From a virus: a stretch of 64,000 bases of DNA. Below, piece after piece: positions 1 to 18,400 of the stretch; position 1 is the stretch's first letter; the number at the start of each line of letters is the position of its first letter. A model generated the notes under the pieces. That model was not told the origin of the DNA. It searched no databases and was given only the letters and a program-made list of their open reading frames with translations. Where the stretch lies: IMG/VR virus record IMGVR_UViG_3300012347_000391, positions 1-64,000 of that record. The stretch is one strand, 5' to 3'. A program made the position numbers and the translations under genes.

Positions 1-1
1 A

Positions 2-583
2 AGTAGTATTGGAACACCACATATTAGATTTTCTACTATTTTTGAAAAAACACAAAAAAGTTTTTCTTCAAATTCTGCTAGTATATCTATTTTCTATAAT
101 CACTATCTTGAAAAGTCTATTTTAAATGATGTTGTAGATGTTAATTATTATATTTATAATAATAACTATCATATTAAGAAGGATGAAGTTTTTCATTCTT
201 TTATTAAAAAACAACTTTTAACACTAGATAAAGAGTATTGGGGAAAATACCTTTGTAAAAAAGGAGAACGTAATGATTATTTCTCATACAATAGTTTTGA
301 GAAACTGATTTTACCTCCTTCTAATGTACAAATAAGAGTAGATAGTGAAGACCTTAAGACTCCTTATATTTATTATAGAGGAGATAAAAAAGAATTTAAA
401 GTTCGTAATGAACAACCTATTAAAGAAAATGAACAACTTAAAATTGAAGAGTTCATTGTATATCCTAATTTATTAAATTATATTCATGGAAAACTTGAAC
501 ACAAATTACAGAAAACCGCCATTGCCGGAAGTAACATTAAAAGATACTATTCCCGTAATAATGTCGCAAGCTATCTTAGATAA
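2..583 (+). CDS. C-terminal part of a hypothetical protein (start lies upstream of the window)
   Basis: Frame 2 is open from the window edge to TAA at 581-583 (193 codons). It is absent from the ORF track because no start is visible. It overlaps the listed start of the next ORF by 98 nt, or by 23 nt if that ORF starts at ATG 561. No motif recognised. Confidence 0.45.
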   Translation, partial: SSIGTPHIRFSTIFEKTQKSFSSNSASISIFYNHYLEKSILNDVVDVNYYIYNNNYHIKKDEVFHSFIKKQLLTLDKEYWGKYLCKKGERNDYFSYNSFEKLILPPSNVQIRVDSEDLKTPYIYYRGDKKEFKVRNEQPIKENEQLKIEEFIVYPNLLNYIHGKLEHKLQKTAIAGSNIKRYYSRNNVASYLR

Positions 584-1688
584 GATACAACATCTATGTC
601 AAAAGATAAATAAAGTAGAATGGTCTGGAGTACTATTTTACAGCATACAAGGTTCTATTAAAAAGCCTAAAACTTTTAAAATTATTCTTGAAGAGATACT
701 TCCTATGGATAGAGGTAGTGCAAGTTATACATCTTATAAATTAGATGATAGATTTGTAGACTATCTTATGGAAGACCCTGAAACAAGAATGGATTGGAAA
801 GTAGGGCAAATACATAGTCATCATAATATGGGTGTTTTCTTTTCAGGAACAGACATGTCAGAGTTAAATGATAATTGTCCTCAACATAATTTCTATTTAT
901 CATTGATTGTAAATAACTACAATGATTTTATGGCAAAAGTAGCTGTATTAGGAGAAGCTACTGTTTCAAAAAAGAATGTACCTTTTATTGCTAGAGATGA
1001 AAATGGAGAAAAATACACTATGCAAACTTTAGATTTTAATCATACAGAAGAAAGAATGTATGTTTATGATTGTGTTATAGACTCCCCAATAAAGGAAGTA
1101 ATAGTCCCGGAGGATTTCTCAAAGAAAGTCGAGGACTTAATCTCTCCTCCAAAAGTAGTTCCTATAACTCCAATAGTTCAAACAGTTCCGGCAAAGCAAG
1201 TTTGGCCACCTACGCATGTACCTGTGAAGACTACTTCTCCGATAACCCCAATTGTCCAGTCCACGGGGAACTTGACTATTGGGACTAAGAAAGATTTTAT
1301 TAAGAAATTTTCAGAAGGTTTTGTTTTTGGTAGACATACTTTATTAGGGTATGTAGAACTTTATGAACCCTTTGTTTGTGATTTATTTGATAATGGAGTA
1401 GTACTAACTTCTCCAAATGGAATAACAGCAGAAGATTACTTTGAAAATCTTATAGGAATAGACCCTATTGATATTGCAAAAAGTATTTCTGATAGATACT
1501 TAGATGTTTTTGTAAAGAATTTACCTGATGCAACTTCAGATGCAGACTTTATTCATTATACAGAACAACTTTTAATCTATTTAGAAACTGAGTATAGTGC
1601 TTATGAAGATATTACTAATCCTACTATTGCCTTATTAAGAGCAATGATTAAAAAATTTAAAGAGTATGGCAGCAGAGCAGCAATTTGA
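486..1688 (+). CDS. JAB/MPN (JAMM) metalloisopeptidase-like protein with Pro-rich linker and C-terminal extension
   Basis: Complete JAMM signature HSHHNMGVFFSGTD (HxHx7Sx2D, nt 813-854) plus upstream Glu in KVEWSGVLFY. It resembles the Rpn11/CSN5-type HSHPG..WLSG.D. Alternative start at ATG 561 (MSQAILDKI...). Confidence 0.8.
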   Translation: MENLNTNYRKPPLPEVTLKDTIPVIMSQAILDKIQHLCQKINKVEWSGVLFYSIQGSIKKPKTFKIILEEILPMDRGSASYTSYKLDDRFVDYLMEDPETRMDWKVGQIHSHHNMGVFFSGTDMSELNDNCPQHNFYLSLIVNNYNDFMAKVAVLGEATVSKKNVPFIARDENGEKYTMQTLDFNHTEERMYVYDCVIDSPIKEVIVPEDFSKKVEDLISPPKVVPITPIVQTVPAKQVWPPTHVPVKTTSPITPIVQSTGNLTIGTKKDFIKKFSEGFVFGRHTLLGYVELYEPFVCDLFDNGVVLTSPNGITAEDYFENLIGIDPIDIAKSISDRYLDVFVKNLPDATSDADFIHYTEQLLIYLETEYSAYEDITNPTIALLRAMIKKFKEYGSRAAI

Positions 1689-2349
1689 TAGATTTAAAGG
1701 GGCCTCTTGGTTTCCCAAAGGAAATGAGTTAATTCTTATTGGTGGTTGTGGAGGTATTGGTTCATGGGTTACTTTCTTTTTAGCTAGAATAGGTTACTTA
1801 CCTGTTGTATATGACTTTGATGTAATTGAAGAACATAACATTGGAGGTCAATTATTTAGACACTCTGATATAGGTAGACTTAAAGTAGCAGCTATTTCTA
1901 GTATTTGTAGAGAATTTTGTGGAACAGAAATTACAACTATTAATGATAGAGTTACTAGAGATACTGCTACACATCATTTTGTTATATCTGCCTTTGATAA
2001 TATGCAAGCTAGAAAAGACCTTTTTGAAGTTTGGAAAAGAAGTATTCCTGATTGTCCAGTTACTCCTGTCTTTATAGATGGTAGATTAGAATTGGAACAG
2101 ATGCAAATCTTTTTCGTAACACCGGATAGAATTGCTGATTATGAAGCAAGATTATTTGATGATAGTTTAATTGAAGATGCTCCATGTACAATGAAGCAGT
2201 CTTCTCATGTGGCTGCTATGATAGCTTCTAAGATAGTAGGTATGTTAACTAATCATCTTTCTAATATATATGAAAGAGAGAATATGAGAACAACACCTTT
2301 CTACTATGAATTTGTAGTACCTTTAACATTAACAATGGAACAACAATAG
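1666..2349 (+). CDS. Minimal E1-like (ThiF/MoeB/HesA family) adenylyltransferase, 227 aa
   Basis: Rossmann nucleotide loop LIGGCGGIGS (nt 1741-1764), DFDVIEEHNIGGQ (the D.D.V...NL.RQ motif with R replaced by G), GRLKVAA, and AFDNMQAR (Mg-binding DN..R motif). Start overlaps the JAB stop by 23 nt. Confidence 0.8.
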   Translation: MAAEQQFDRFKGASWFPKGNELILIGGCGGIGSWVTFFLARIGYLPVVYDFDVIEEHNIGGQLFRHSDIGRLKVAAISSICREFCGTEITTINDRVTRDTATHHFVISAFDNMQARKDLFEVWKRSIPDCPVTPVFIDGRLELEQMQIFFVTPDRIADYEARLFDDSLIEDAPCTMKQSSHVAAMIASKIVGMLTNHLSNIYERENMRTTPFYYEFVVPLTLTMEQQ

Positions 2350-2350
2350 T

Positions 2351-3667
2351 ATGAGTGTAGAGATAAATGAATATACAAGTGGTACAGAAAATAATAGAGG
2401 AGATTTTTATAGTATAGCTAAGTATATACCATTAATGACTTATCTTAATTTGTATCATATTAATACAGAGTTAGAATTAGTATCTTTAGTTTTAAAAAAG
2501 CCTAGTTCTGTAGAAGGAGATTATCTTTATGGTAATTCTTCTGCTAAACTGCTTAGTTATCTCTCTACTTCTGTGTTTTTAAGACGAATTGAAACAAATG
2601 GTTTAATAATCCATGTTGGGAAAGGTGTCATCTATGATGACGAAAATAATATTTTACTTTCTCTTAGTATAGAGACGCAATTTATTGTAGATGCATTAGT
2701 AAATGATACTTATAATTGGAGTAGTCTTTTTGAGGCAAATCGTAATTTTGTTGGATATGAACCTTTTATAATGTTTGTTTCTACTGAATTTGCTAATGAT
2801 AAGAAGTTTGCTGTTTTATATAGAAGAATAAAAAAGATTTATTTAGATTTTTGTTTTGAAAAAGGTATAGAGATGAGGTTAATTTCTTCGTCCAAAATTG
2901 AAAAGAATACCTTCACAAATAATCTTAAAATCAAATTTAATTCTCTTACGGAACTAAATCGTCATCTAACAGAAGAAGTTAAACATCTGTTACAAACTCC
3001 TCTTGAAAATTTCCAAGAAAATGAATTTCCTTTACTTTTAGGTTCACCACCTGTACCTAAGAGTAAAGAAAAGAAAAGTCCTTGGCAAGACTTTGTTCCA
3101 CAAATGGAAGATAGAATAGAAGTTCTAAATCATTCTAGAGATTCTATGTTAGAAGATTCTGATAGAGATGAAGAAGATTTTGGACCAGTTGTTTTAGATG
3201 TAAATTCTCTTCCTTCAATAAGTTCCCCTTCTTTAGAAGAATTGTTACATGAAACTTCTCCTCTTTTTATAAATACATCTGTTACTCCTATACCTTCTAA
3301 TTATGTAAATAGAATAATGATGGATGTAGATAGGATAATGGCTATGGATATGTCTATATTAAGTTCTAATCAATCTTCTCTTAGAGATAGTGCTACAGAA
3401 GCACTAGGTGTTCCTGTTAGATATTTTGATAGTGACCAGTATGGAACAAATACTAGACCAGAAAATATTCCTTCTATTACTTATGATAGTAGAGAAGGTT
3501 TAAGTAGAGATAGTTTAGAAGAAGCTATTAATTATCTTGCAAGTGAAATAGATATAGAACAGGAAAGAAGAGAAGTTGAAAGAGGAGATGATACAGATTG
3601 GTTAGATGTAGATTATTTTGACACTAATCAAGAAGAAGATGAGCAAGAAAGAGACTTGCCGTATTAA
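2351..3667 (+). CDS. Hypothetical protein: folded N-terminal half plus a roughly 200-aa Ser/Asp/Glu-rich tail
   Basis: ATG lies 1 nt after the E1-like stop. The C-terminal half is low-complexity and acidic, ending ...QEEDEQERDLPY. No catalytic motif recognised. Confidence 0.6.
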   Translation: MSVEINEYTSGTENNRGDFYSIAKYIPLMTYLNLYHINTELELVSLVLKKPSSVEGDYLYGNSSAKLLSYLSTSVFLRRIETNGLIIHVGKGVIYDDENNILLSLSIETQFIVDALVNDTYNWSSLFEANRNFVGYEPFIMFVSTEFANDKKFAVLYRRIKKIYLDFCFEKGIEMRLISSSKIEKNTFTNNLKIKFNSLTELNRHLTEEVKHLLQTPLENFQENEFPLLLGSPPVPKSKEKKSPWQDFVPQMEDRIEVLNHSRDSMLEDSDRDEEDFGPVVLDVNSLPSISSPSLEELLHETSPLFINTSVTPIPSNYVNRIMMDVDRIMAMDMSILSSNQSSLRDSATEALGVPVRYFDSDQYGTNTRPENIPSITYDSREGLSRDSLEEAINYLASEIDIEQERREVERGDDTDWLDVDYFDTNQEEDEQERDLPY

Positions 3668-3726
3668 GATTAACGTGAAGGTTTAAGAAGGACATTTAAT
3701 TTTAACCTTTAAAAACTCTCGCTTAT

Positions 3727-4248
3727 ATGGGTTCAGGTAAAACAAATAAGTTACGTGGACATAATGGAGAAAGACATTATGCCATATATTTTCGTAACCT
3801 TGGTTTTGAGTTCTGTGAAACTTCTCGTGCTGCAAGTAGAAAACACGATAATGCTAAAATAGACTTAATGTATATTCCATACAATATTCAGATTAAAACT
3901 GGTAAACATACTAGTATGAATCCGGGTAAAGAACTGTTTAGTATGGAAGCATCAATAAAACTTATGTTCCCACCAGAAGATGAAGTTTTTAAAAAACCGT
4001 GCCTATTAATACATAGAAAATATGTAGAAGTAGGACATAAGAGAAAGATAGAAGACGATGTTGTCTTTATGTCTTTGAGACAATTTGATTTATATAGAAA
4101 CAATGGTGCAAATTTTGAATATCTTTCTTTGAAAGATTTTAAGTTTGAACTAGATTCTCAATTTAAAACAATTGTCTCAGTAACTATGGAGGATTTTAAA
4201 AATCAAGTAATCTTAAAAGAACAAAGTAATGTTAAAAATTGCAACTAG
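3727..4248 (+). CDS. Putative PD-(D/E)XK endonuclease, Hjc/RecU-like Holliday junction resolvase candidate
   Basis: GHNGERHYAIYFRNLGF ... SRAAS ... DNAKIDLMYIPYNIQIKTG fits the E...D...(E/Q)xK layout of archaeal-type resolvases. Motif-level evidence only. Confidence 0.4.
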   Translation: MGSGKTNKLRGHNGERHYAIYFRNLGFEFCETSRAASRKHDNAKIDLMYIPYNIQIKTGKHTSMNPGKELFSMEASIKLMFPPEDEVFKKPCLLIHRKYVEVGHKRKIEDDVVFMSLRQFDLYRNNGANFEYLSLKDFKFELDSQFKTIVSVTMEDFKNQVILKEQSNVKNCN

Positions 4249-5455
4249 AGAGGAAATCTCTGCATACAGAGAATCAGAAAGCTTAAACCAATCAAAAGTT
4301 AAAAAGCTTTTAGATGGTATCCACAACTTAGAAGAGGTTTTAGACCCTACTAAACAACATTTTATTGTTGGGGGAGCTGTGGATACCTTACTATTAGGTG
4401 AAGAAGGTGATTTTGAAAAATTATATTATGTAGGTCAAGCTTCTAAGAAGCCTACAGGAGCAGTACTTAGTGTAGTAGAAGAGGTTTTTCAAATGTGCTC
4501 TGCAGATTATGAAGAATACTTACTTACTACTATTAAAGTAGAAGCTACCGTATTTCAAGGAGAGTCTGAAGTTGTCATAACTCAAGATAGTATTGAAGAA
4601 GATATACCTGTTACTTCTTTTATTGAGTTTGCAGGTAGTTATGATGATAAAGATGTTTATATCTTAGATGCTGCAGAAAGATTGGAGTACAATCCTAGAT
4701 GGGGAGCAGATGCTAAGATTAAAAATCTAAAAACAGAGGATGCTAAAGAGTATTTTAGTAGTTTATTAGTTTCTTATGGAAGACTTATCATTGATAGTAC
4801 TACATACGAGAATATTAAAGCTATTGTAAATTCTCTTAAAACACATCAAAGAACTAGAAATTATTTTGATAGAGAGTATTTACAAAGTCTAAATTCCGTG
4901 GATACCTATTTTCAGCTTCCTGTTTTCTTTGACTATGAGTCTCCTGAAGGAGTGAAAGTTCCTTGTAAAGGACTTCTTGATATGGTCTTAGTGTTTAGAA
5001 ATGCAGAAAATAAAATTACTCAAATTATAGGTATTGATTTGAAAACCTTAGCTGGAAATACTTTATACTTCATTAGTAGTGTAAAACAAAGACGCTATGA
5101 TATTCAAGCAGCTTGGTATATTGAAGGTTTAAAAGCATATTTTGCTAATGAATTAGAAGAAGGTACTCCTATTAAATTTCAATTTGTAGTTGAAAGTACT
5201 ACTTTTCCGGGAAAACCTCTAGTTTTCTCTGCTTCTGAAGAACTCTTAGCTATAGGAAGATGGGGGAGAAAGGCAATTTCCCTAGTAGAAACAAATTTAT
5301 TTGCTGAAAATGCAGGGTCAGCCACTATTCAAAGAGAAGTTAAAGGTATTCAACAGTTAATGGATACTTATATCTATCATAATGAAAATGGTTGGGAAGA
5401 AGAAAGAGAAATTATAGAGGCCAATGGTCAACCTTTAGTACTTGATTGGAATTAA
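4229..5455 (+). CDS. RecB/Cas4-like PD-(D/E)XK nuclease family protein
   Basis: GLLDMV ... IGIDLKT ... QAAWY (D, DxK and QxxxY motifs). Overlaps the upstream gene by 20 nt. Confidence 0.5.
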   Translation: MLKIATREEISAYRESESLNQSKVKKLLDGIHNLEEVLDPTKQHFIVGGAVDTLLLGEEGDFEKLYYVGQASKKPTGAVLSVVEEVFQMCSADYEEYLLTTIKVEATVFQGESEVVITQDSIEEDIPVTSFIEFAGSYDDKDVYILDAAERLEYNPRWGADAKIKNLKTEDAKEYFSSLLVSYGRLIIDSTTYENIKAIVNSLKTHQRTRNYFDREYLQSLNSVDTYFQLPVFFDYESPEGVKVPCKGLLDMVLVFRNAENKITQIIGIDLKTLAGNTLYFISSVKQRRYDIQAAWYIEGLKAYFANELEEGTPIKFQFVVESTTFPGKPLVFSASEELLAIGRWGRKAISLVETNLFAENAGSATIQREVKGIQQLMDTYIYHNENGWEEEREIIEANGQPLVLDWN

Positions 5456-6060
5456 ACGTTATGAATATAAATATTGGTAACGTAGTAGAAAATAAAACTT
5501 TAAAGTATCTTTTTCCTGCTATTCGTGTTTATGGTTCTACTTTTTTAGCTAAGTTTAATTTGACATATAAACTAGCTTATGGAATACATGATTGTTTACT
5601 TGATGGTACTCCTTTTGAATATCAAAGAAAACTATGTATATTAATAGATAGAAAGAGTAGGCCAAATCTCTATGAGGATTTTATTAGATGGATTAGATTA
5701 CAGGAATATTTTATAGCAGACTATTCGCAAGATGATACTATAACAGGTAGAATGCAGATGGTAGTTATTGAGTTTCCTGAAGAATATTCTAGTATATATG
5801 ATAATTTTCTAAAAAGTAGTTACAGTAAAATGTATCTTAGATATAACATAGATGATTTCTTTAAAGAGGAAGACCATACTAAACAGGTTTTAATGAAGTC
5901 TTCAGAGTTAGCTCCTAGTTTTGTTAAATCAGTTAATGATTTATATAAAACAACACTTACTATTGAAGATTTTGATAAAGAAGGAGAATATGATTTTCCT
6001 TGGGAGAAACAAAACGAATTTTTTAACTATAAAGTATATATGGAGGGGAAACCCTCCTAA
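5446..6060 (+). CDS. Hypothetical protein
   Basis: Co-oriented ORF overlapping the upstream stop by 10 nt. No motif recognised. Confidence 0.55.
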   Translation: MELNVMNINIGNVVENKTLKYLFPAIRVYGSTFLAKFNLTYKLAYGIHDCLLDGTPFEYQRKLCILIDRKSRPNLYEDFIRWIRLQEYFIADYSQDDTITGRMQMVVIEFPEEYSSIYDNFLKSSYSKMYLRYNIDDFFKEEDHTKQVLMKSSELAPSFVKSVNDLYKTTLTIEDFDKEGEYDFPWEKQNEFFNYKVYMEGKPS

Positions 6061-6081
6061 TACTTTTAAAAAAGAGATTAT

Positions 6082-6327
6082 ATGACCATAATAAAAGTGG
6101 CACAAGGGGTAGAGTTATCTGAACAATTTAAAAATTGGATACAAAGAAAAGTGCAGCCTTCTATGCAAGATTCAGAAAAAGAAGTTTTTCAATATTTTGT
6201 AGATACTGTTTTAGAACAAATGGATTATTGGTTAGGAGTGTTAGATGAAAAAGCTACTTGGACAAGTGTTGATGTAGCTAATCTTATGGAGTGTAAACAA
6301 TCAGATATTGATTATATAGAGTTTTAA
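6082..6327 (+). CDS. Hypothetical small protein
   Basis: Tightly packed co-oriented ORF. No motif recognised. Confidence 0.5.
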   Translation: MTIIKVAQGVELSEQFKNWIQRKVQPSMQDSEKEVFQYFVDTVLEQMDYWLGVLDEKATWTSVDVANLMECKQSDIDYIEF

Positions 6328-6329
6328 TT

Positions 6330-7214
6330 ATGGCACTAATAGCAATATCAGGAAAAATAAACAGTGGTAAGGATACTGTAGGTAAGATTATAAACTATCT
6401 TCTTACAGGAGGAACATTAACTTATGAATCTATTGAAGGATTTTTAGAATACTATGAAGATGGTATAGATAAATATCCTTATCAAATCAAGAAATGGGCA
6501 GATACTCTTAAGGATATTATATGTATTCTTATAGGTTGTACTAGAGAACAACTTGAGGATAGAGACTTTAAAGAAAAGGAATTAGGAGAAGAATGGTGGA
6601 TTATTGAAACTTCATATAGAAATGGACCAACTCCTCCTGTTATGTTATATTCTAAAGAGATACTAACTCAATTGGGGTATGCACAACATAATATTAGAAA
6701 AACAACTCCTAGATTACTTCTTCAATTTATAGGTACTGAATGTGGTAGAAATATTATACATCCTAACATTTGGGTTAATGCTTTGATGAGTAAGTATCAA
6801 GTTAAGTTAGGTTCTAAAGTTGTACCGATTTTAAGTGGTAAAACAGGAGATAGTGGTAAAGTAATAGGTACTATAGTATATCCTAATTGGATTATTACAG
6901 ATACTCGTTTCCCTAATGAACTTAAAGCTGTTAAGGATAGAGGAGGAATCAGTATTAGAGTTAATAGACCTAAATATGCTAAAGGTTTACATAAAATTGA
7001 TTTAGGAAAAGGTGGAGTAATATATACTTCAGGAGAAGGATTAGAACAATTAGATAAAGCTTTTGAAATAGAAGCAGGAATTGTTCGACACACCTCTGAA
7101 ACAGCATTAGATAATGCTACTTTTGATTATACTATTAATAATGATGGTACTCTTGAAGAATTGATTGAGAAAATTAGAGAAATATTAATTCAAGAGAAAA
7201 TACTATGTCCGTAA
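6330..7214 (+). CDS. P-loop kinase, phage deoxynucleoside-monophosphate kinase-like
   Basis: N-terminal MALIAISGKINSGKDTVGK matches the SGK..SGKDT start typical of phage dNMP kinases. The protein is longer than usual (294 aa). Confidence 0.5.
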   Translation: MALIAISGKINSGKDTVGKIINYLLTGGTLTYESIEGFLEYYEDGIDKYPYQIKKWADTLKDIICILIGCTREQLEDRDFKEKELGEEWWIIETSYRNGPTPPVMLYSKEILTQLGYAQHNIRKTTPRLLLQFIGTECGRNIIHPNIWVNALMSKYQVKLGSKVVPILSGKTGDSGKVIGTIVYPNWIITDTRFPNELKAVKDRGGISIRVNRPKYAKGLHKIDLGKGGVIYTSGEGLEQLDKAFEIEAGIVRHTSETALDNATFDYTINNDGTLEELIEKIREILIQEKILCP

Positions 7215-7486
7215 AATTAACTAAACAACATTTAGATAAGTATCTAGCTAATCCAGAGGTATGTCCTTTTTGTGAATCAGATAACTTAAGAGCTGGTAGT
7301 GCTAGTTTCATAGAATCAATTTGTTCTAGAGACATTAAGTGTCTTAGCTGTAAAGAAGAGTTTATAGAAGAGTTTATAATGGTAGGTATCTCTCAAGCAG
7401 ATACTATTTTAATTATTAATCAAGATAGTTTCTTAACTGAAGCTGAACTAGTATATTATTATGGATACACAGATAGTACCAAGTAA
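7205..7486 (+). CDS. Small zinc-ribbon-like protein
   Basis: Paired CxxC motifs (CPFCESDN ... CLSCKEEF). Overlaps both neighbouring genes. Confidence 0.45.
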   Translation: MSVKLTKQHLDKYLANPEVCPFCESDNLRAGSASFIESICSRDIKCLSCKEEFIEEFIMVGISQADTILIINQDSFLTEAELVYYYGYTDSTK

Positions 7487-8969
7487 CAGACAAACTGTTA
7501 TTTATAATACTTTTCAAGAAACAGATTATAACTTACTAATCCAAGCAGTAGCTGGTAGTGGCAAAACAACAGTATTGCTTGGATTATTAGGATATGCTCA
7601 ATATAGAACTTTGTTCTTAGCTTTTAATAAATCTATTCAAGAAGAAATTTCAACAAGAATAGACCAAGCAGGTTTTCAACATGCTAAAGCTATGACATTA
7701 CATTCTTTAGGTTTAATGGCCTTAAATTATCATTTTGGTAAAGTTATTATTGATAAGAACAAGAACTACAAGCTAATTAAATCTTTACAAGATTATAATA
7801 AAGGTTTATTTAATAGAATGTCTTGGGAAGAGAAAAGTAAAACTACTATTACTCTTATGGAGATGAATGATGTAAGTAGAATCTATTTAACTAATGATGT
7901 TGAAAAGATTACAACTTATATGCAAGAGATGGATAAATTCTTTTTCTTACATCCTTTATTAGATGAGTTATGGCAAGAGTTTTTATACATAAGAACCTCT
8001 TATGAAGACCAAAAAATAATTGATTTTACGGATATGATTTATATGGTAGTAAATAGAGAGTTGCCTATTCCTGTACAGCCATATTATCTTATGATTGATG
8101 AATGTCAAGATTTAAATTTAGCTCAACATGAGTTTATAAATCAATTTATTAATCAAGGAGATGTTCACAAATGGATAGCTGTTGGAGATAGAAGACAAAG
8201 TATCTATGGATTCTCAGGAAGTCATTCTAGTTCTTTTGATTTGTTTAAAGAAAGACCTAATGTAGTTGAGTTACCTTTAGATGTTTGTTATAGATGCCCT
8301 ACACTAGTTATACAAGAAGCAAATCTTGTGTACGATGTAATGCAAGGGTATAAAACAGAATCAGGAGTAGTTTCTACTATAGATACATTTGATAAAGTAG
8401 TAGAAGGAAGTATGGTTATTTGTAGAAATTCTGCTCCTTTAATTCAAGCTTATTTTGAACTACTATCTAGAGATAAGAAAGTATATTTGAAAGGAGATGA
8501 TATTCTTAATGAATTAAATCGATTTTTAAAACCCTATCAATACAAAAAGATAAAACAAGTATTAGATGAACTTAGAGCAGAGATATTTTTATTAGAAGAT
8601 AAATCTACTTTAACAGATAAAGAAAGATTTAAGATTTATAAGTTAAGTGATAACTTAAAAAATCTTACTTTACTTGCTAGTAATTTTTGTAAACTAACAG
8701 ACAAAGTAGAAGAAGTTTTAACAAGATTAAAATATATGTTTGATACTATTTCAGATAATGATGCTATAGTACTTTGTACTATACATAAATCTAAAGGACT
8801 AGAAGCAGATATAGTTTATATCTTAAATGAATTTCTTATACCTTCTAAATTTGCTAAATCTGTTTCTCAACTTGAACAAGAAAAGAATCTTAGATATGTA
8901 GCAAGAACAAGAGCAAAAAAAGAATTACATTACCTTAATATAGGTAAGAAATCTAATAAAGAAGAGTAA
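7461..8969 (+). CDS. SF1 DNA helicase (UvrD/Rep/PcrA-like)
   Basis: Walker A AVAGSGKTT, motif II MIDECQD, motif III VGDRRQSIYGFSG, TIHKSKGLE, and motif VI YVARTRAKKEL. Confidence 0.85.
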   Translation: MDTQIVPSNRQTVIYNTFQETDYNLLIQAVAGSGKTTVLLGLLGYAQYRTLFLAFNKSIQEEISTRIDQAGFQHAKAMTLHSLGLMALNYHFGKVIIDKNKNYKLIKSLQDYNKGLFNRMSWEEKSKTTITLMEMNDVSRIYLTNDVEKITTYMQEMDKFFFLHPLLDELWQEFLYIRTSYEDQKIIDFTDMIYMVVNRELPIPVQPYYLMIDECQDLNLAQHEFINQFINQGDVHKWIAVGDRRQSIYGFSGSHSSSFDLFKERPNVVELPLDVCYRCPTLVIQEANLVYDVMQGYKTESGVVSTIDTFDKVVEGSMVICRNSAPLIQAYFELLSRDKKVYLKGDDILNELNRFLKPYQYKKIKQVLDELRAEIFLLEDKSTLTDKERFKIYKLSDNLKNLTLLASNFCKLTDKVEEVLTRLKYMFDTISDNDAIVLCTIHKSKGLEADIVYILNEFLIPSKFAKSVSQLEQEKNLRYVARTRAKKELHYLNIGKKSNKEE

Positions 8970-13847: not shown

Positions 13848-14079
13848 AGAAGAAATACTAGAGAAAGTCAAAAATTTTATTACTGATACTTTAGATATAA
13901 AGATAGACCAATTAGTTGAAGAATATAAACTTAATGAAGAGTTAGGTTTAGATTCTTTAGATAGAGTAGTTTTCTTTATGGATTTAGAAAAAGAATTTAA
14001 TATTGCTATTCCTGAAGAAGAAGAGGAAGATATAGTAACTATTAAAGAACTTATTGACTATTTAGTAACTAAATTATAA
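13840..14079 (+). CDS. Acyl carrier protein
   Basis: 79 aa that aligns by eye along its whole length with bacterial AcpP. It contains ELGLDSLDRVVFFMDLEKEFNIAIPEEE, with the phosphopantetheine-attachment Ser in DSLD (nt 13954-13956). Confidence 0.85.
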   Translation: MDREEILEKVKNFITDTLDIKIDQLVEEYKLNEELGLDSLDRVVFFMDLEKEFNIAIPEEEEEDIVTIKELIDYLVTKL

Positions 14080-14084
14080 CAATT

Positions 14085-14594
14085 ATGAATGAAAGAAAAC
14101 CTGTCAAATCTTTATTTGACTTAAAATTAACAACTTGGTTTGTTACTAGAAAACCTATAGTTCAAGAGGCTATATGTAAATATCCTCCGGGGTATTATAT
14201 CTATTCAGTAAATAACTTACTTTATAGATTAATAGGTTGGTCTGAACCTGAAGAAAGTAAAGGGGAGTCTGTTGTACAAATATTTCTTGAAAGAGAGATA
14301 GAAGGAGGAACTGAAAGAATAAGAATCCATCCTGATTTTATATTTCCTGCAGCAGATGAAGTAGAAGAAGTAGAAACTATTGAAGAGATAGAAACTGTTA
14401 CTAATTTTGAGCCTGTACTTGTAGGTTATAACATAGGTAAAGAAATTGGAGGAGAGATTAAATATCTATCTTTTGAAGGACAAAGAAGAGTTTTCTATAC
14501 TATAGAAGATGCTAAAGATTTCTTAGGAGATAATGGACATGTTATTAATGTAGAACAATTGGAAGAATTTATCTATTCTCCTGTTTATTCTTAA
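14085..14594 (+). CDS. Hypothetical protein with an acidic EVEEVETIEEIETV segment
   Basis: Co-oriented ORF. No motif recognised. Confidence 0.5.
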   Translation: MNERKPVKSLFDLKLTTWFVTRKPIVQEAICKYPPGYYIYSVNNLLYRLIGWSEPEESKGESVVQIFLEREIEGGTERIRIHPDFIFPAADEVEEVETIEEIETVTNFEPVLVGYNIGKEIGGEIKYLSFEGQRRVFYTIEDAKDFLGDNGHVINVEQLEEFIYSPVYS

Positions 14595-14596
14595 TT

Positions 14597-14806
14597 ATGT
14601 TAGTAGAGACAGAATCTGAATTTTGGCAAAAAGAGTTAGAGAAGATAAAAGACCCTATATCAGGAGCTTATTACTTCTATATTAACTATGTTAAAATTGA
14701 AAGAAATGGTAAAAGAACTTCTCCTCCTTTTATAACAGAGAAGGATTTTAATAAAGTAATTGAACAAGATTCCTTATTATATGTAAAGAATCGTAGAAGA
14801 AACTAA
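14597..14806 (+). CDS. Hypothetical small protein
   Basis: Tightly packed co-oriented ORF. Confidence 0.45.
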   Translation: MLVETESEFWQKELEKIKDPISGAYYFYINYVKIERNGKRTSPPFITEKDFNKVIEQDSLLYVKNRRRN

Positions 14807-14810
14807 GATT

Positions 14811-15035
14811 ATGGTAAGATTTCATTGTTTAACAAGTGAGTTTAGTAAATATATTTTACTAAAAGATTATGGAGATACTACTTATTTTGTAGTTTTACAT
14901 TTATGTAAGACAGATACTTTTGTTAAAGTAGATAGAAGAATAAAGTCTAAAGATGATTTTATTAAATTGTATGGTTTTCAAGCAAAATATACAGAGGAAG
15001 AGATGAATAAAGCTTTAATTCATAAATTTAAATAG
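14811..15035 (+). CDS. Hypothetical small protein
   Basis: Tightly packed co-oriented ORF. Confidence 0.45.
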   Translation: MVRFHCLTSEFSKYILLKDYGDTTYFVVLHLCKTDTFVKVDRRIKSKDDFIKLYGFQAKYTEEEMNKALIHKFK

Positions 15036-15036
15036 T

Positions 15037-15273
15037 ATGATAACTGTAGAAGATTATTTAAAAGAAAAAGTGTATATTACACAAGATGGAATTGAAGATG
15101 TTCATGATAGCCTTAGTACTGTAAGAGATGCTGTAATTGAACTTATTCAAATACATGTAACAGAAGCTCTAAGACTAGCTAGTGAACAAGCTGAAAGTTA
15201 TATGCAACATTCTTGGGAAAAAGAGTATAAAGAAGGTATTCTAAATGCTTATCCGTTAGAAAATATTAAATAG
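15037..15273 (+). CDS. Hypothetical small protein (last gene of the plus-strand arm)
   Basis: Tightly packed co-oriented ORF. Confidence 0.45.
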   Translation: MITVEDYLKEKVYITQDGIEDVHDSLSTVRDAVIELIQIHVTEALRLASEQAESYMQHSWEKEYKEGILNAYPLENIK

Positions 15274-15413
15274 TAAAGGTTGGCTCTGCTGGGTAGTTCA
15301 AATCCACTAGTAACTAATCATGGTAACATGAGGTGAACGAGATGGTATCTTGGAAGGCGTCGGAAGCTAAGTAGAATAGGATACTCAAAACTACATTACC
15401 TTTATTATACAAG

Positions 15414-15449
15414 AAGAGTGAGGCAAAACCTCACTCTTTCTTTTTTTTT
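15414..15449. terminator. Bidirectional rho-independent terminator at the convergence of the two arms
   Basis: Perfect 10-bp stem AAGAGTGAGG (15414-15423) / CCTCACTCTT (15429-15438) with a 5-nt loop, followed by TC plus a T9 run. It sits 11 nt from the stop of the minus-strand 1593-aa gene. Confidence 0.75.
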
Positions 15450-15460
15450 ATTTAAGTGTA

Positions 15461-18400
15461 TTATTTAATCTCTTTTTGTTCTTCATCATATAGAGAGCGT
15501 ATTTTGAGAGAATATGTAGCATCTAATTCAGCCTTTACTTTCCTCTTAATTTCTTCTTCTAAGAGTACTTTAACTGCAGGGTCTTGATTGTCAATATCAT
15601 ATTCCTTATTCCAATACTTAGTAAGTTCCTCTTTAGCTTCTGCTCTATCAGATTTTAGACTTTTTAAATCTTTTTTATAATCTGACCAAAATGCAGCATC
15701 CATAAGTTCCCCCGGTTTCCATTCCCTTTCTCCATATTTATTGAAACCAAAACTTTTAAAATCTCCTCCTGCCCATTCATTAAATAAACTAGGCATTGTC
15801 ATTTTACCCACAGAGGTCCAAAATTTTGATTCTCCCGCATTTTCTCCAGTTTCAAGGGTATCGTCATCGGTAACTAATTTCTTCTGTAATCCACTAGATA
15901 CTTGAGTTATTCTTGTAAACCAAGAATCAATTCCTGCAGGTTTTGCTATAGCTGAATATAATCCTTGTGCATTAGTAAATAAACTAGCATCTTCTATTAA
16001 TCTAGTAATAGAGTTCTCTAGTACATTATAATAAAAGTCATCAATCTCTTTTTGTGCCCAATAAGGATTAGGAGTTTGTCCATCTAAAGTTTTAGGTTCT
16101 TTCTCATCATCATCTCCCATTAAAGATTTAATAAGTACTTTACCTAATGTTAACCAAAGTAAACCAACTACTTCATTAACTATGAAACTAAGATTTTGTC
16201 TATCTGCATCTGTAATATTTAATTCATTAAATTGATGTGCTTGAATTAAATTTTTACCTGATACTATATTAATAGGTAAACCTATACTTTTCTTTAATAT
16301 AGCTTTTCCAATTGCAGATAATTGAGTCAAAGCTTGTAAACTTTCTCCATCTACATTCTTATTACTCTTATTCATTTTATATGAATAAGCAGCTAAACCT
16401 AATAAAGTAATACCTCCAAGTCCTAAACCTAAAGTCATAGTACTTGTTATTCCAATACCTAAACCTAGAGCTGTTGTACTAGCTATATTGGTTTTCTTAT
16501 TAGATAAAGCTCCTGCATAAGAACCATCAAAATCTTTTAAACCTAATGATATACTATTTTGATTTTTAGCAAATCTTAAAAAGTACTGATTAGGCATCCA
16601 AGTTTTAAACATCATTAAAGACTTACCTAATGTAAAGTTTTTAATATAAGTACTTCCTGTTTTAGAATAATCTCCATTTAATAATGCAATAGTATCTGTT
16701 ATTTTAGATTTTACATCTGCATAAGTATTACTATTGAAATTTTCCCATGTCTCTATATTCTCAGGGGTTCTAAATTCAGGTTTTAATACTAATTCCCCAT
16801 CTACAATATTGTATGCAGGAAAAGATTGAGTATGACCATCAAATATTGGTACAGAAATTTGATTACCTTGTGCATTTACTGAAGTACTCATGATAGAAGA
16901 ATCCATCAAAATAGCTAAAGCTTGTGGAACTTGATTATGCCATTCTGTATATTCTGTAAGGTAAAAAGGATTTAGTTTTCTAGTCCAACCTGTAAAGCCT
17001 GATTCTCTTCTTGCTCTATCTAATTCATTAGTATTATCTTGAATATATCCCATTTTTTCAGTTAAGAGTTTAGCTTTCTTAACTTCATTTCTGTACTTGT
17101 TCATTCCCGGAATATATCTAATACCTTTTCTATTGATAAAAGCATTTGCAGCATAAAAATTACCTGCTGTCCAGTATCTTCCTGTATCATTAATCATTCC
17201 TTGATACCATCCTTGAAATCTATTAAAAAATTGAGAAGGTACATTCCAACCTAAACCTAAGAAAATACCAAATCTATTGATTAAAGTATTATAGATAGAG
17301 GCCCAAGTATAAGTTGTACCTAGATTATCTATTTGATGTTTAACACCATCTATTTCATACTGTAAAGCTACTGCTTTATCATTATCTGTAGTTTCCTCAA
17401 TTTTTTGTTCTAAATAAGCTATATATTTCTCTGCCTCTTCTTTATAGGCTTTTTCTCCTACATTAAGATTTTTACCCATCTTTCCCCAATGGTCTTTATC
17501 TTCTACTCCTTTTACATTCTTATTAATCCAAGATTGAGTTCTTAATTGTCCTCTAACTCTTTTATCTTGAAGACCATATTCTCTTTGTTTAAGTAAAACT
17601 CTATTGGCAACACCTTTTATTTCAGCATAAACACCTGACTTTACTTCTTTTTTTTCTAATTGGACTGTATCATATAAGTCTTTATAGATATTAATTTTAG
17701 GTAAAGCCTCTTTCTGTGCTTTATATTCTGAAACAACATCAAGATAAGCTCTCATCATAACAGGAAGATTAAAAGTTTGCTCTTCCATTACTTGATTAGT
17801 TAAGACTTCTTTAGCTACAAAAGGAATATTTATCTTAGAACCATAAGCTTTTGTAATATCAACTATATTTAATCCTGTTAATCTTTCTAATAAATCTTGA
17901 GCTTCTTGATTTAAAACAAGAGGATTTATCTTAGAAAGATTATCAATTTTAGATACCCTTTTAAATTCCATTTCAAAGACATCATATCTCTTACTAACCT
18001 CTTGTTGTATAGTTTCTATACCAGCTTTATTTACTTCAGTAATATCATTAGCTTTAGTGTCTCTAATATTAGTAGACATCATATCTTTAATAGTCTGCCC
18101 TGTGTCAGCTAACAAAGAAGTAGTCTTATTCATTACACCTAATTTTTTATCTAATAAGGTATCTGTCATACCTTTACTCATTTTTAATAATGAGTTATGA
18201 GATAAAGTAGTTTTAGAGTCACTTAAAGTGCTATTCATATATTGAGTAGCTTCTGCAAGTATTTCCCAAAATTTTAACAAATCTACATCATTTTCTATTT
18301 CAGAAAAATTAGCATCAAAGTATCCTGAATCCTCTGTTCTAGAGTCTCCATTCATATTATAGGTTGTTACCTCTTGTTTAGGTATAAATGAATTGTACTT

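Follow-up and report, generated by a model that had tools for sequence, protein, structure and literature searches.

Organization of the gene cassette

The DNA examined here (the window) comprises positions 1 to 64,000 of the IMG/VR virus record IMGVR_UViG_3300012347_000391 and is part of a 95-kb contig. Close to its left end, two overlapping open reading frames (ORFs) on the + strand encode a JAMM/MPN+ metallopeptidase, hereafter the JAB protein (486..1688, 400 aa), and a minimal E1-like adenylase of the ThiF fold (1666..2349, 227 aa). A first-pass annotation of the window had placed both ORFs, with their 23-nt overlap, at these positions, and all the motifs that it quoted, EWSGVLFY and HSHHNMGVFFSGTD in the JAB protein and GGCGGIGS, DFDVIEEHNIGGQ, GRLK and AFDNMQAR in the adenylase, occur in the translations. 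The two ORFs occupy the third and fourth positions in a collinear five-gene cassette with the order Ubl precursor–A'–JAB–E1–D, where Ubl denotes a ubiquitin-like protein. The DNA neighbouring the window was taken as locus L003, whose sequence is the same as that of the window across 11,688 nt, L003 position 9441 being window position 1. The gene of the Ubl precursor (239 aa), the first of the cassette, is found outside the window, 749-1468 nt before its start (L003:7972-8691). The second gene, that of protein A', reaches into the window at 2..583 (+ strand); the upstream neighbour listed in the first-pass annotation is present, but it codes for no more than the last 193 residues of A', whose full length is 421 aa (L003:8758-10023). 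The fifth gene encodes protein D (2351..3667, + strand). The ORFs at 2..583 and 2351..3667 had been pointed out as the places to look for a Ubl or an E2; the Ubl is instead encoded two genes upstream of the JAB gene, outside the window, and neither neighbour is a recognizable E2.

A megablast comparison of window positions 1-8000 revealed no DNA-level match to GenBank phages, and relatives were found only at the protein level, where a search with the E1 returned 74 phage records. The closest group is that of the FpV4-group phages of Flavobacterium psychrophilum, with 61% identity, and the E1 proteins of gut crassviruses (Steigviridae/Asinivirinae), among them crAss001 Gp76 and those of DAC15/17, cr111_1, cr106_1 and Kehishuvirus, show between 32 and 40% identity. 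In the related records the E1 gene is annotated as "thiamine biosynthesis protein ThiF" and the gene upstream of it as "metalloprotease domain protein" or hypothetical.

Eighty loci were pulled from IMG/VR with the JAB alignment, and iterated hidden Markov models were built for each neighbouring gene. The order Ubl–A'–JAB–E1–D was kept in 59 of 84 loci, and the exceptions mostly correspond to cuts at contig ends or to split or duplicated ORFs. Co-occurrence of the JAB and E1 genes in related phages, on which the first-pass annotation had made its proposal depend, extends to the whole cassette: all five genes are found in essentially every related locus, the flanks being sufficient to look for E1 in 71 loci (present in 71), A' in 74 (74), the Ubl in 73 (73) and D in 67 (63). 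The same cassette occurs in FpV4, crAss001 (Gp79–Gp75), cr111_1, cr106_1 and bajarodcaudo virus 1, and its carriers come from gut Bacteroides, fish-pathogenic Flavobacterium and environmental metagenomes. It is very widespread, since the A' family alone accounts for 3256 of 1.84 billion cluster representatives (E≤0.001).

Only two occurrences of the JAB gene were detected in 185,579 species genomes. One is a 2.7-kb contig of a metagenome-assembled genome (MAG) and the other belongs to a Puia sp. MAG, where it is located on a contig of 373 kb (DASYBV010000020.1, positions 282-295 kb; locus L088). The latter has five ORFs with the order and sizes of the cassette (Ubl 4290-4850, A' 4905-6053, JAB 5896-7068, E1 7071-7772 and D 7769-8395, in L088 coordinates), of which JAB was identified by tblastn, the Ubl by translation and the remaining ones by order and size. 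Either the integration of a crAss-like element or a chimeric assembly could account for this block.

The E1-like adenylase

The adenylase matched the Pfam ThiF family (PF00899) over residues 23-198 with 56.1 bits, against a gathering threshold of 28.1 (E=3.9e-15), in agreement with the E1-like motifs noted in the first pass. There are 26 invariant columns in the alignment of 39 homologues, including G27, G29, G30, D50, D52, K73, D111 and C174, and G26 is conserved in at least 90% of them. The motif set, formed by the nucleotide loop G-G-x-G-G-I-G, D50/D52, K73 and D111, aligns with the motifs of MccB, UBA5 and ThiF. Two peculiarities that the first-pass annotation had pointed out were confirmed. 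The full-length protein has just 227 aa, with no E2 fusion, Cys domain or ubiquitin-fold domain, and the Arg of the NLxRQ motif is replaced by Gly: the motif reads N58-x-G-G61-Q62, where G61, invariant in the 39 homologues, stands opposite the Arg of MccB NLTRQ.

Compared with PDB, the E1 profile matched MccB (1.1e-10), UBA5 (3e-10), PaaA (7.6e-9), TcdA (1e-7 to 3e-7) and Cap2 (4e-5), together with SAE2, UBA6, UBA1, ThiF, MoeB and NAE, in an overall range of 1e-10 to 2e-4. The ranking holds no subfamily signal because only the generic N-terminal half of the E1 aligns; the C-terminal half alone gave no match in PDB. All the NCBIfam equivalog cut-offs were missed widely: PRK08644 scored 57.8 bits for a cut-off of 159 (E 1e-15), thiF_fam2 43.5 for 152 (3e-11), PRTRC_ThiF 41.5 for 144.75, MoeB 23 for 377 and TcdA 19.9 for 304. 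Judged by these scores, the E1 is no equivalog of ThiF, MoeB, TcdA or PRTRC_ThiF, and the housekeeping enzyme of the TcdA/MoeB type that the first-pass annotation had considered as an alternative is not what was found. An hhalign comparison with E. coli ThiF and MoeB, for which the reference sequences were entered by hand, gave a probability of 96.5% over 185 columns, tentatively placed C174 on Cys184 of ThiF, the crossover-loop cysteine, and indicated that the zinc-binding CxxC pairs are absent from the phage protein. Among the PADLOC models, the E1 matched Cap2-type E1-E2 models and BilD over 40-110 residues of the nucleotide-binding region, with a best E of 2e-7; the BilD match had E=0.002 over ~75 residues.

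The E1 frame is interrupted in three IMG/VR loci, in one of them by a gap of ~1 kb (L058:8082-10019) and in two by ~280 nt (L072:6404-7406 and L073:8113-9115). These interruptions could be due to an intron, an intein, the insertion of a homing element or a frameshift. N-terminal extensions of ~150-180 aa were observed in the E1 proteins of crAss001 (Gp76, L002:5542-6000) and cr106_1 (gp069, L085:4006-4540). We considered these extensions as possible fused E2 domains and rejected the idea, as they are mutually dissimilar, matching each other only weakly (E=2.5e-6), and are absent from the other loci.

The JAMM peptidase

The JAB protein is formed by a JAB domain (residues ~26-200), a linker rich in Pro, Val and Thr and a conserved helical C-terminal domain (~270-400). 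Its active site follows the pattern E…H-x-H-x7-S-x2-D. In an alignment of 38 of the 384 detected homologues, H85, H87, S95 and D98 are invariant and E20, within EWSG, is conserved in at least 90%, so that the full JAMM set reported in the first pass holds across the family. Similarity to described families is low. Pfam Prok-JAB gave the window protein 16.2 bits, below the cut-off of 25 (E=0.01), and the PADLOC JAB model matched it with E=4e-4. Prok-JAB was also matched by 28 of the 38 homologues, with scores under the cut-off in every case (best E=0.0016), and it is the only family that recurs. A profile search of PDB with the JAB alignment gave no match. On the strength of the conserved site, the protein is best described as a divergent member of the JAMM/MPN+ group; a relationship with RadC-type DNA-repair proteins, which the first-pass annotation had named as an alternative, was not observed, the family matched being Prok-JAB and not RadC.

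Two start codons are possible for this gene: ATG 486, with a 98-nt overlap with the A' gene, and ATG 561, the choice of the gene callers, which gives 375 aa. The N-terminal residues coded in window positions 486-583 (…VTLKDTIPVIM) are conserved in several homologues, and similarly long A'/JAB overlaps are annotated in FpV4 (125 nt) and crAss001 (62 nt). In most homologues the C-terminal helical domain is followed by a short tail with an aliphatic last residue (…GTAV, …NPTV). A phmmer match of this domain (window 1290-1688) to a mitochondrial acyl carrier protein (ACP; 7zm7_O, E=0.028) was discarded because the phosphopantetheine Ser corresponds to Pro or to a variable residue in the homologues and ACP was not recovered by the profile search.

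The ubiquitin-like protein precursor

The first ~90 residues of the protein encoded by the first gene of the cassette are ubiquitin-like by eye, and end in …IIRPKDTKAG before an Ala in the genome of the window. The positional equivalents are gp53 of FpV4 (…MRPKQVKSGG) and Gp79 of crAss001 (…EKKIKSGA). An AlphaFold2 model showed a ββαββ β-grasp at residues 16-85, with block means of the predicted local distance difference test (pLDDT) between 74 and 91, made of strands 16-22, 27-33, 56-60 and 79-85 and helix 38-48. Beyond it, the model has a low-confidence linker (90-96), a helical domain (102-143) and a disordered tail rich in Lys and Ala. In a Foldseek search of PDB with this model, nearly all of the 50 listed matches were ubiquitin, ISG15, UBX or other ubiquitin-like domains; the probability was 1.00 for almost all of them, and the target-normalised TM-score (template-modelling score) was ~0.6-0.7 with single-domain ubiquitin chains.

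At the end of the β-grasp, the sequence [K/D]-[S/A]-G occurs in 70 of 71 distinct Ubl sequences (KSG in 65, DSG in 3 and KAG in 2), followed by a variable residue. The penultimate residue is thus Ser in 68 of the 70 and Ala in 2, and a di-glycine terminus is absent; where the first-pass annotation had looked for a β-grasp protein with a terminal Gly-Gly, the Ubl has Ser-Gly inside a longer precursor. What follows Ser-Gly is either a helical (HeH-like) extension of 63–217 aa, rich in Lys and Ala, or just one or two residues. The stand-alone Ubls of L059 and L082 end, immediately before the stop codon, in TKSGK and TKSGE, respectively. In cr106_1 (L085, NC_055871; 246-1449) the gene naturally occurs in two pieces. 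The Ubl has an ORF of its own (92 aa, ending in KSGKF), which is followed by an HNH endonuclease gene (526-1041) and then by a separate ORF for the HeH-like part, rich in Lys and Glu (1057-1449). A different arrangement was seen at L067:4717-5004, where a second, shorter Ubl-like ORF without the Ser-Gly motif lies directly 5' of the canonical one.

Ubiquitin, NEDD8 and SUMO are synthesized as precursors, and it takes a peptidase to expose their Gly. In Bub operons, the JAB cuts the Ubl fusion BubAB after a conserved Gly, ahead of activation by the E1 (PMC11601596). By analogy, the terminus of the phage Ubls has the pattern of a modifier whose Gly is exposed by a peptidase, as in ubiquitin, NEDD8, SUMO and BubAB.

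Proteins A' and D

Across 29 diverse sequences of A', crAss001 Gp78 included, eight residues never vary (S172, H173, C191, G193, E228, S229, G232 and P234). They lie in the contexts YxHSHL (S172-H173), FCxG (C191-x-G193) and E228-S229…G232-x-P234. The first two motifs are coded upstream of the window, and the window start cuts the third, leaving S229, G232 and P234 inside and E228 just outside. An AlphaFold2 model of A' (pLDDT 82.7, predicted template-modelling score (pTM) 0.69) showed, in this order, a helix at 62-84, four strands, a loop with the His, C191 and helices from residue 197 onwards, with H173 and C191 spaced by 18 residues. This order of secondary-structure elements in the model recalls UBC folds, the resemblance being one of topology only.

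No informative match was found for A' or D in NCBIfam, PHROGs, Pfam or PADLOC, and Foldseek comparison of A' with BFVD returned crAss-like orthologues only. A picornaviral 3C-like protease was suggested by Foldseek with a probability of ~0.2 and was rejected on account of the short spacing, 18 residues, between His173 and Cys191. A' is thus probably an uncharacterised enzyme with a Cys/His site. As no method confirmed a UBC fold, we put forward its role as an E2-like carrier as a hypothesis.

The D family shares a domain of ~220 aa, in which only Met1 and Pro27 are invariant, and has a variable, acidic C-terminal tail. A word-indexed search found seven homologues, and its profile gave one short, chance-like match in PDB (2hpg), with no relatives detected. 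Protein D could be an adaptor or a substrate.

A putative phage-owned Ubl pathway

On balance, we consider it probable that the cassette is a pathway owned by the phage, which matures, activates and probably conjugates its own Ubl and is co-expressed with the replication genes. The first gene would give a β-grasp Ubl with a near-invariant Lys-Ser-Gly, followed by a disposable extension or by one or two residues. The JAB protein is predicted to mature this precursor by a cut after Ser-Gly, which would expose the carboxylate of the Ubl. The minimal E1, probably as a homodimer, would then adenylate that carboxylate and may load the Ubl on its invariant C174, the putative crossover-loop cysteine. 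From there the Ubl would pass to a target, most plausibly through C191 of A', which is flanked by the invariant Ser-His and Glu-Ser. The JAB protein may also be an isopeptidase and undo the Ubl linkage. As to timing, the replication and recombination genes of crAss001 belong to its middle transcriptional class (PMC8375218), and the cassette would be expressed together with such genes. A wider proposal, which we make tentatively and hold, as a whole, to be somewhat less likely than not, is that the crAss-like Steigviridae and FpV4 phages possess the first complete Ubl conjugation pathway owned by bacteriophages, with a Ubl released from a fusion, a stripped-down E1, A' as a new Cys-dependent carrier and phage or host targets during replication.

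The first-pass annotation had envisaged a ubiquitin-like or a counter-defence module. The first half of that proposal is borne out, as the phages carry their own Ubl and the genes co-occur in the replication arm of crAss-like genomes; for the second half, no link to counter-defence was found. Among the roles it had listed, a phage-owned tagging cycle is the one that we favour because a conserved β-grasp Ubl with a Lys-Ser-Gly end is encoded in the same block of genes, conjugation itself being the presumed outcome.

Several observations weigh against this pathway. The E1 does not have the Arg of NLxRQ, which contacts the ATP phosphate in MoeB/ThiF-type enzymes, and therefore its competence for adenylation is not assured. 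The assignment of C174 as the crossover-loop cysteine is only a lead because it depends on the ThiF and MoeB references entered by hand. The Ubl terminus is Ser-Gly and not Gly-Gly, and the call of its fold comes from one AlphaFold2 model built from 12 sequences, since its profile matched no Ubl family in PDB sequences, Pfam or PADLOC. For A', there was no E2/UBC match in Pfam or PADLOC; hhalign comparisons with UBE2D2, UBE2I, UBE2N, UBE2L3 and TSG101 gave probabilities below 1%; and Foldseek found nothing significant in PDB, where TSG101-UEV appeared at E≥0.23 with probability ≤0.28, mixed with NTF2-like matches. Protein D has no assignable function. Finally, what the data show is confined to the domain identities of JAB, E1 and Ubl, their conserved catalytic or terminal residues, the gene order and co-occurrence and the natural Ubl variants; all of the chemistry, from the cut in the precursor through adenylation and thioester transfer to conjugation, is inferred, as are the part played by A' and any target.

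To our knowledge, accounts of Ubl conjugation in prokaryotes (CBASS Cap2/3, Bil, Bub) have until now presented it as a weapon of the host against phages. Here, Ubl-type machinery together with its own modifier appears as a conserved core feature of a large lytic phage lineage that includes the cultured gut crassviruses crAss001 and DAC15 and the fish-pathogen phage FpV4, and in whose genomes the cassette genes bear no annotation beyond "thiamine biosynthesis protein", "metalloprotease" and "hypothetical". Should the Ubl indeed be conjugated to proteins, Ubl tagging in bacteria would also serve a virus. The E1, devoid of the NLxRQ Arg and of the zinc site, would then be a new minimal type, and the transfer enzyme might represent a new class. 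Since a conserved Lys precedes Ser-Gly, trypsin should leave a Ser-Gly remnant of +144.05 Da on modified lysines.

We found no published description of a ThiF/JAB/ubiquitin system in crAss phages; a 2026 preprint (10.64898/2026.03.05.709809) mentions in passing a gut-phage family that resembles UBA5.

Comparison with known systems

The first-pass annotation had cited CBASS, Bil and PRTRC systems as examples of a JAB–E1 core. No link of the cassette to any of them was found: the similarity in PADLOC and NCBIfam searches is confined to the region of generic Rossmann motifs, and no similarity reached a Bub, Bil, CBASS or PRTRC model. Judged by the logic of its parts, the closest known system is the type I Bub (6E/DUF6527; PMC11601596), which has a JAB and a minimal homodimeric E1, a fusion Ubl cut after a single conserved Gly and a highly diverged E2-like partner. 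However, JAB and E1 form one polypeptide in Bub and are the products of separate, overlapping genes in the phages; the Ubl is fused to the E2 in Bub and to a helical Lys/Ala-rich tail in the phages; and the Bub E1 and E2 lack Cys (oxyester chemistry), whereas the phage E1 keeps a Cys that is tentatively assigned to the crossover loop. Bub also includes the DUF6527 serine protease, and no DUF6527 was detected in the phage cassette. A', for its part, has ~400 aa with a Cys that is invariant, and no similarity to UBC could be detected in it. The carrier of the cassette is a lytic phage.

The Bil system (BilA-D) is built from the same four kinds of component, a Ubl, a transfer enzyme, a JAB and an E1, and likewise does without an E3. 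Yet Bil is a host defence whose BilD is a large E1 of IAD-AAD-CYS architecture, in contrast to the 227 aa of the phage E1, and the phage Ubl and A' matched no defence-system model of PADLOC, those of Bil included. In the type II cyclic oligonucleotide-based antiphage signalling system (CBASS), Cap2 and Cap3 likewise combine an E1 adenylation domain with a JAB isopeptidase that acts on a protein C-terminus. There, Cap2 is an E2-E1 fusion and the substrate is the CD-NTase, whereas the phage cassette has a β-grasp protein and neither a cyclase nor an effector; the likeness of the phage E1 to Cap2 models is confined to the Rossmann motif region, as is its PDB match to Cap2.

The only earlier phage precedent is the lambda/T1 pair TAPI (a Ubl) and TAPK (a JAB-NlpC/P60 protein) (PMC1779556), in which a β-grasp with a conserved C-terminal Gly is connected by a linker to a C-terminal domain and its release by the JAB is predicted. 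This pair, however, is a tail-assembly module with no E1 or adenylation, and its JAB is fused to NlpC/P60, while the present cassette belongs to a replication module.

The PRTRC cassettes of plasmids and integrative and conjugative elements are alike in carrying a ThiF-like E1, a JAB and small partners on a mobile element beside DNA-handling genes. Against this likeness, the score of the E1 is far below the PRTRC_ThiF cut-off and its neighbours matched none of the PRTRC A, B, C or E models; no Pfam ParB domain was found in the ten ORFs scanned (2..8969).

Alternative interpretations

The first alternative is a sulfur carrier pathway. The β-grasp protein would correspond to ThiS, MoaD, CysO or QbsE, the JAB would trim it in the manner of Mec+ and QbsD, the E1 would adenylate it for the formation of a thiocarboxylate, and the sulfur would end in a cofactor or in a thiolated nucleoside or DNA base produced while the phage replicates. 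Some likenesses to the ThiF/MoeB-ThiS/MoaD and CysO-Mec+/QbsCDE pathways can be named: a small E1 fold of the homodimer type, comparable in size to thiF_fam2; a cysteine, C174, tentatively aligned with ThiF Cys184; JAB trimming, as for CysO and QbsE, whose known layout is that of JAB, E1 and carrier (PMC1779556); and best NCBIfam matches of the ThiF type (PRK08644 and thiF_fam2). The setting among genes of nucleotide and DNA metabolism would also suit this function. However, those scores are far under the equivalog cut-offs (58 vs 159 bits in the best case), the E1 has neither the zinc CxxC pairs nor the NLxRQ Arg, which is Gly, and the cassette and its immediate neighbours include no rhodanese, cysteine desulfurase, ThiG/ThiH/MoaE-type or other sulfur-acceptor gene and no sulfur-transfer partner. 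The Ubl ends in Ser-Gly, while the known sulfur carriers end in Gly-Gly, its Foldseek matches are ubiquitin, ISG15 and UBX and not ThiS or MoaD, and the strictly co-conserved A' and D have no counterpart in sulfur-carrier pathways. We regard a sulfur carrier as unlikely.

Somewhat less probable still is a function purely in counter-defence, where the JAB would strip the Ubl or CD-NTase conjugates of the host (Bil, type II CBASS), the E1-like protein would trap or mis-activate a host Ubl and the β-grasp protein would be a decoy. Bacterial Ubl systems are indeed antiphage, and tail proteins of phages are the targets of the Bil Ubl (PMC11601596); this function was also raised in passing for the UBA5-like gut-phage family (10.64898/2026.03.05.709809), and the E1 gave weak PADLOC matches to Cap2-type E1-E2 models and BilD. 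But these matches extend over no more than 60-110 residues in the nucleotide-binding region (E 2e-7 at best), and the phage Ubl and A' matched no defence-system model beyond scattered, single-member chance matches in PADLOC. Moreover, a core phage function fits better than an answer to sporadic host systems because a Ubl of their own, with a conserved cleavable terminus, is kept in all 73 loci from very different hosts and habitats.

The least probable alternative, an adenylation not involving a Ubl, in which the E1 would act like MccB, PaaA or TcdA on the C-terminus of a peptide or on a nucleoside, the JAB would be an unrelated protease and the β-grasp a module of a DNA-binding protein, has in its favour the top PDB matches to those three enzymes, the missing NLxRQ Arg, which hints at an altered chemistry, and the usual fusion of the Ubl to a helical, DNA-binding-looking Lys/Ala-rich tail, but is disfavoured by UBA5 and SAE2 scoring about as well as MccB with only the generic N-terminal half aligned, by the absence of an MccB/PaaA peptide-clamp domain from the 227-aa E1, and by the Ser-Gly placed exactly at the end of the β-grasp and the stand-alone Ubls, which are hard to explain with an unused terminus.

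Genomic context

The cassette is set in a block of DNA replication and recombination genes. On its 5' side there are genes for PolA, helicases, a DnaB-like protein and the uracil-DNA glycosylase UDG; on its 3' side follow those for a RusA-like resolvase, an exonuclease VIII-like PD-(D/E)XK nuclease, a deoxynucleoside monophosphate (dNMP) kinase and a UvrD helicase. The genes of the resolvase (PHROG 244/15993) and the exonuclease VIII-like nuclease (PHROG 412) occupy window positions 3727-5455 with an overlap of 20 nt, and the same pair is located directly 3' of the cassette in FpV4 and crAss001. Further to the right, around 16 kb (window ~14000-18000), the GC and AT skews both reverse their sign, which probably marks the switch from the rightward block of replication genes to a leftward-transcribed block.

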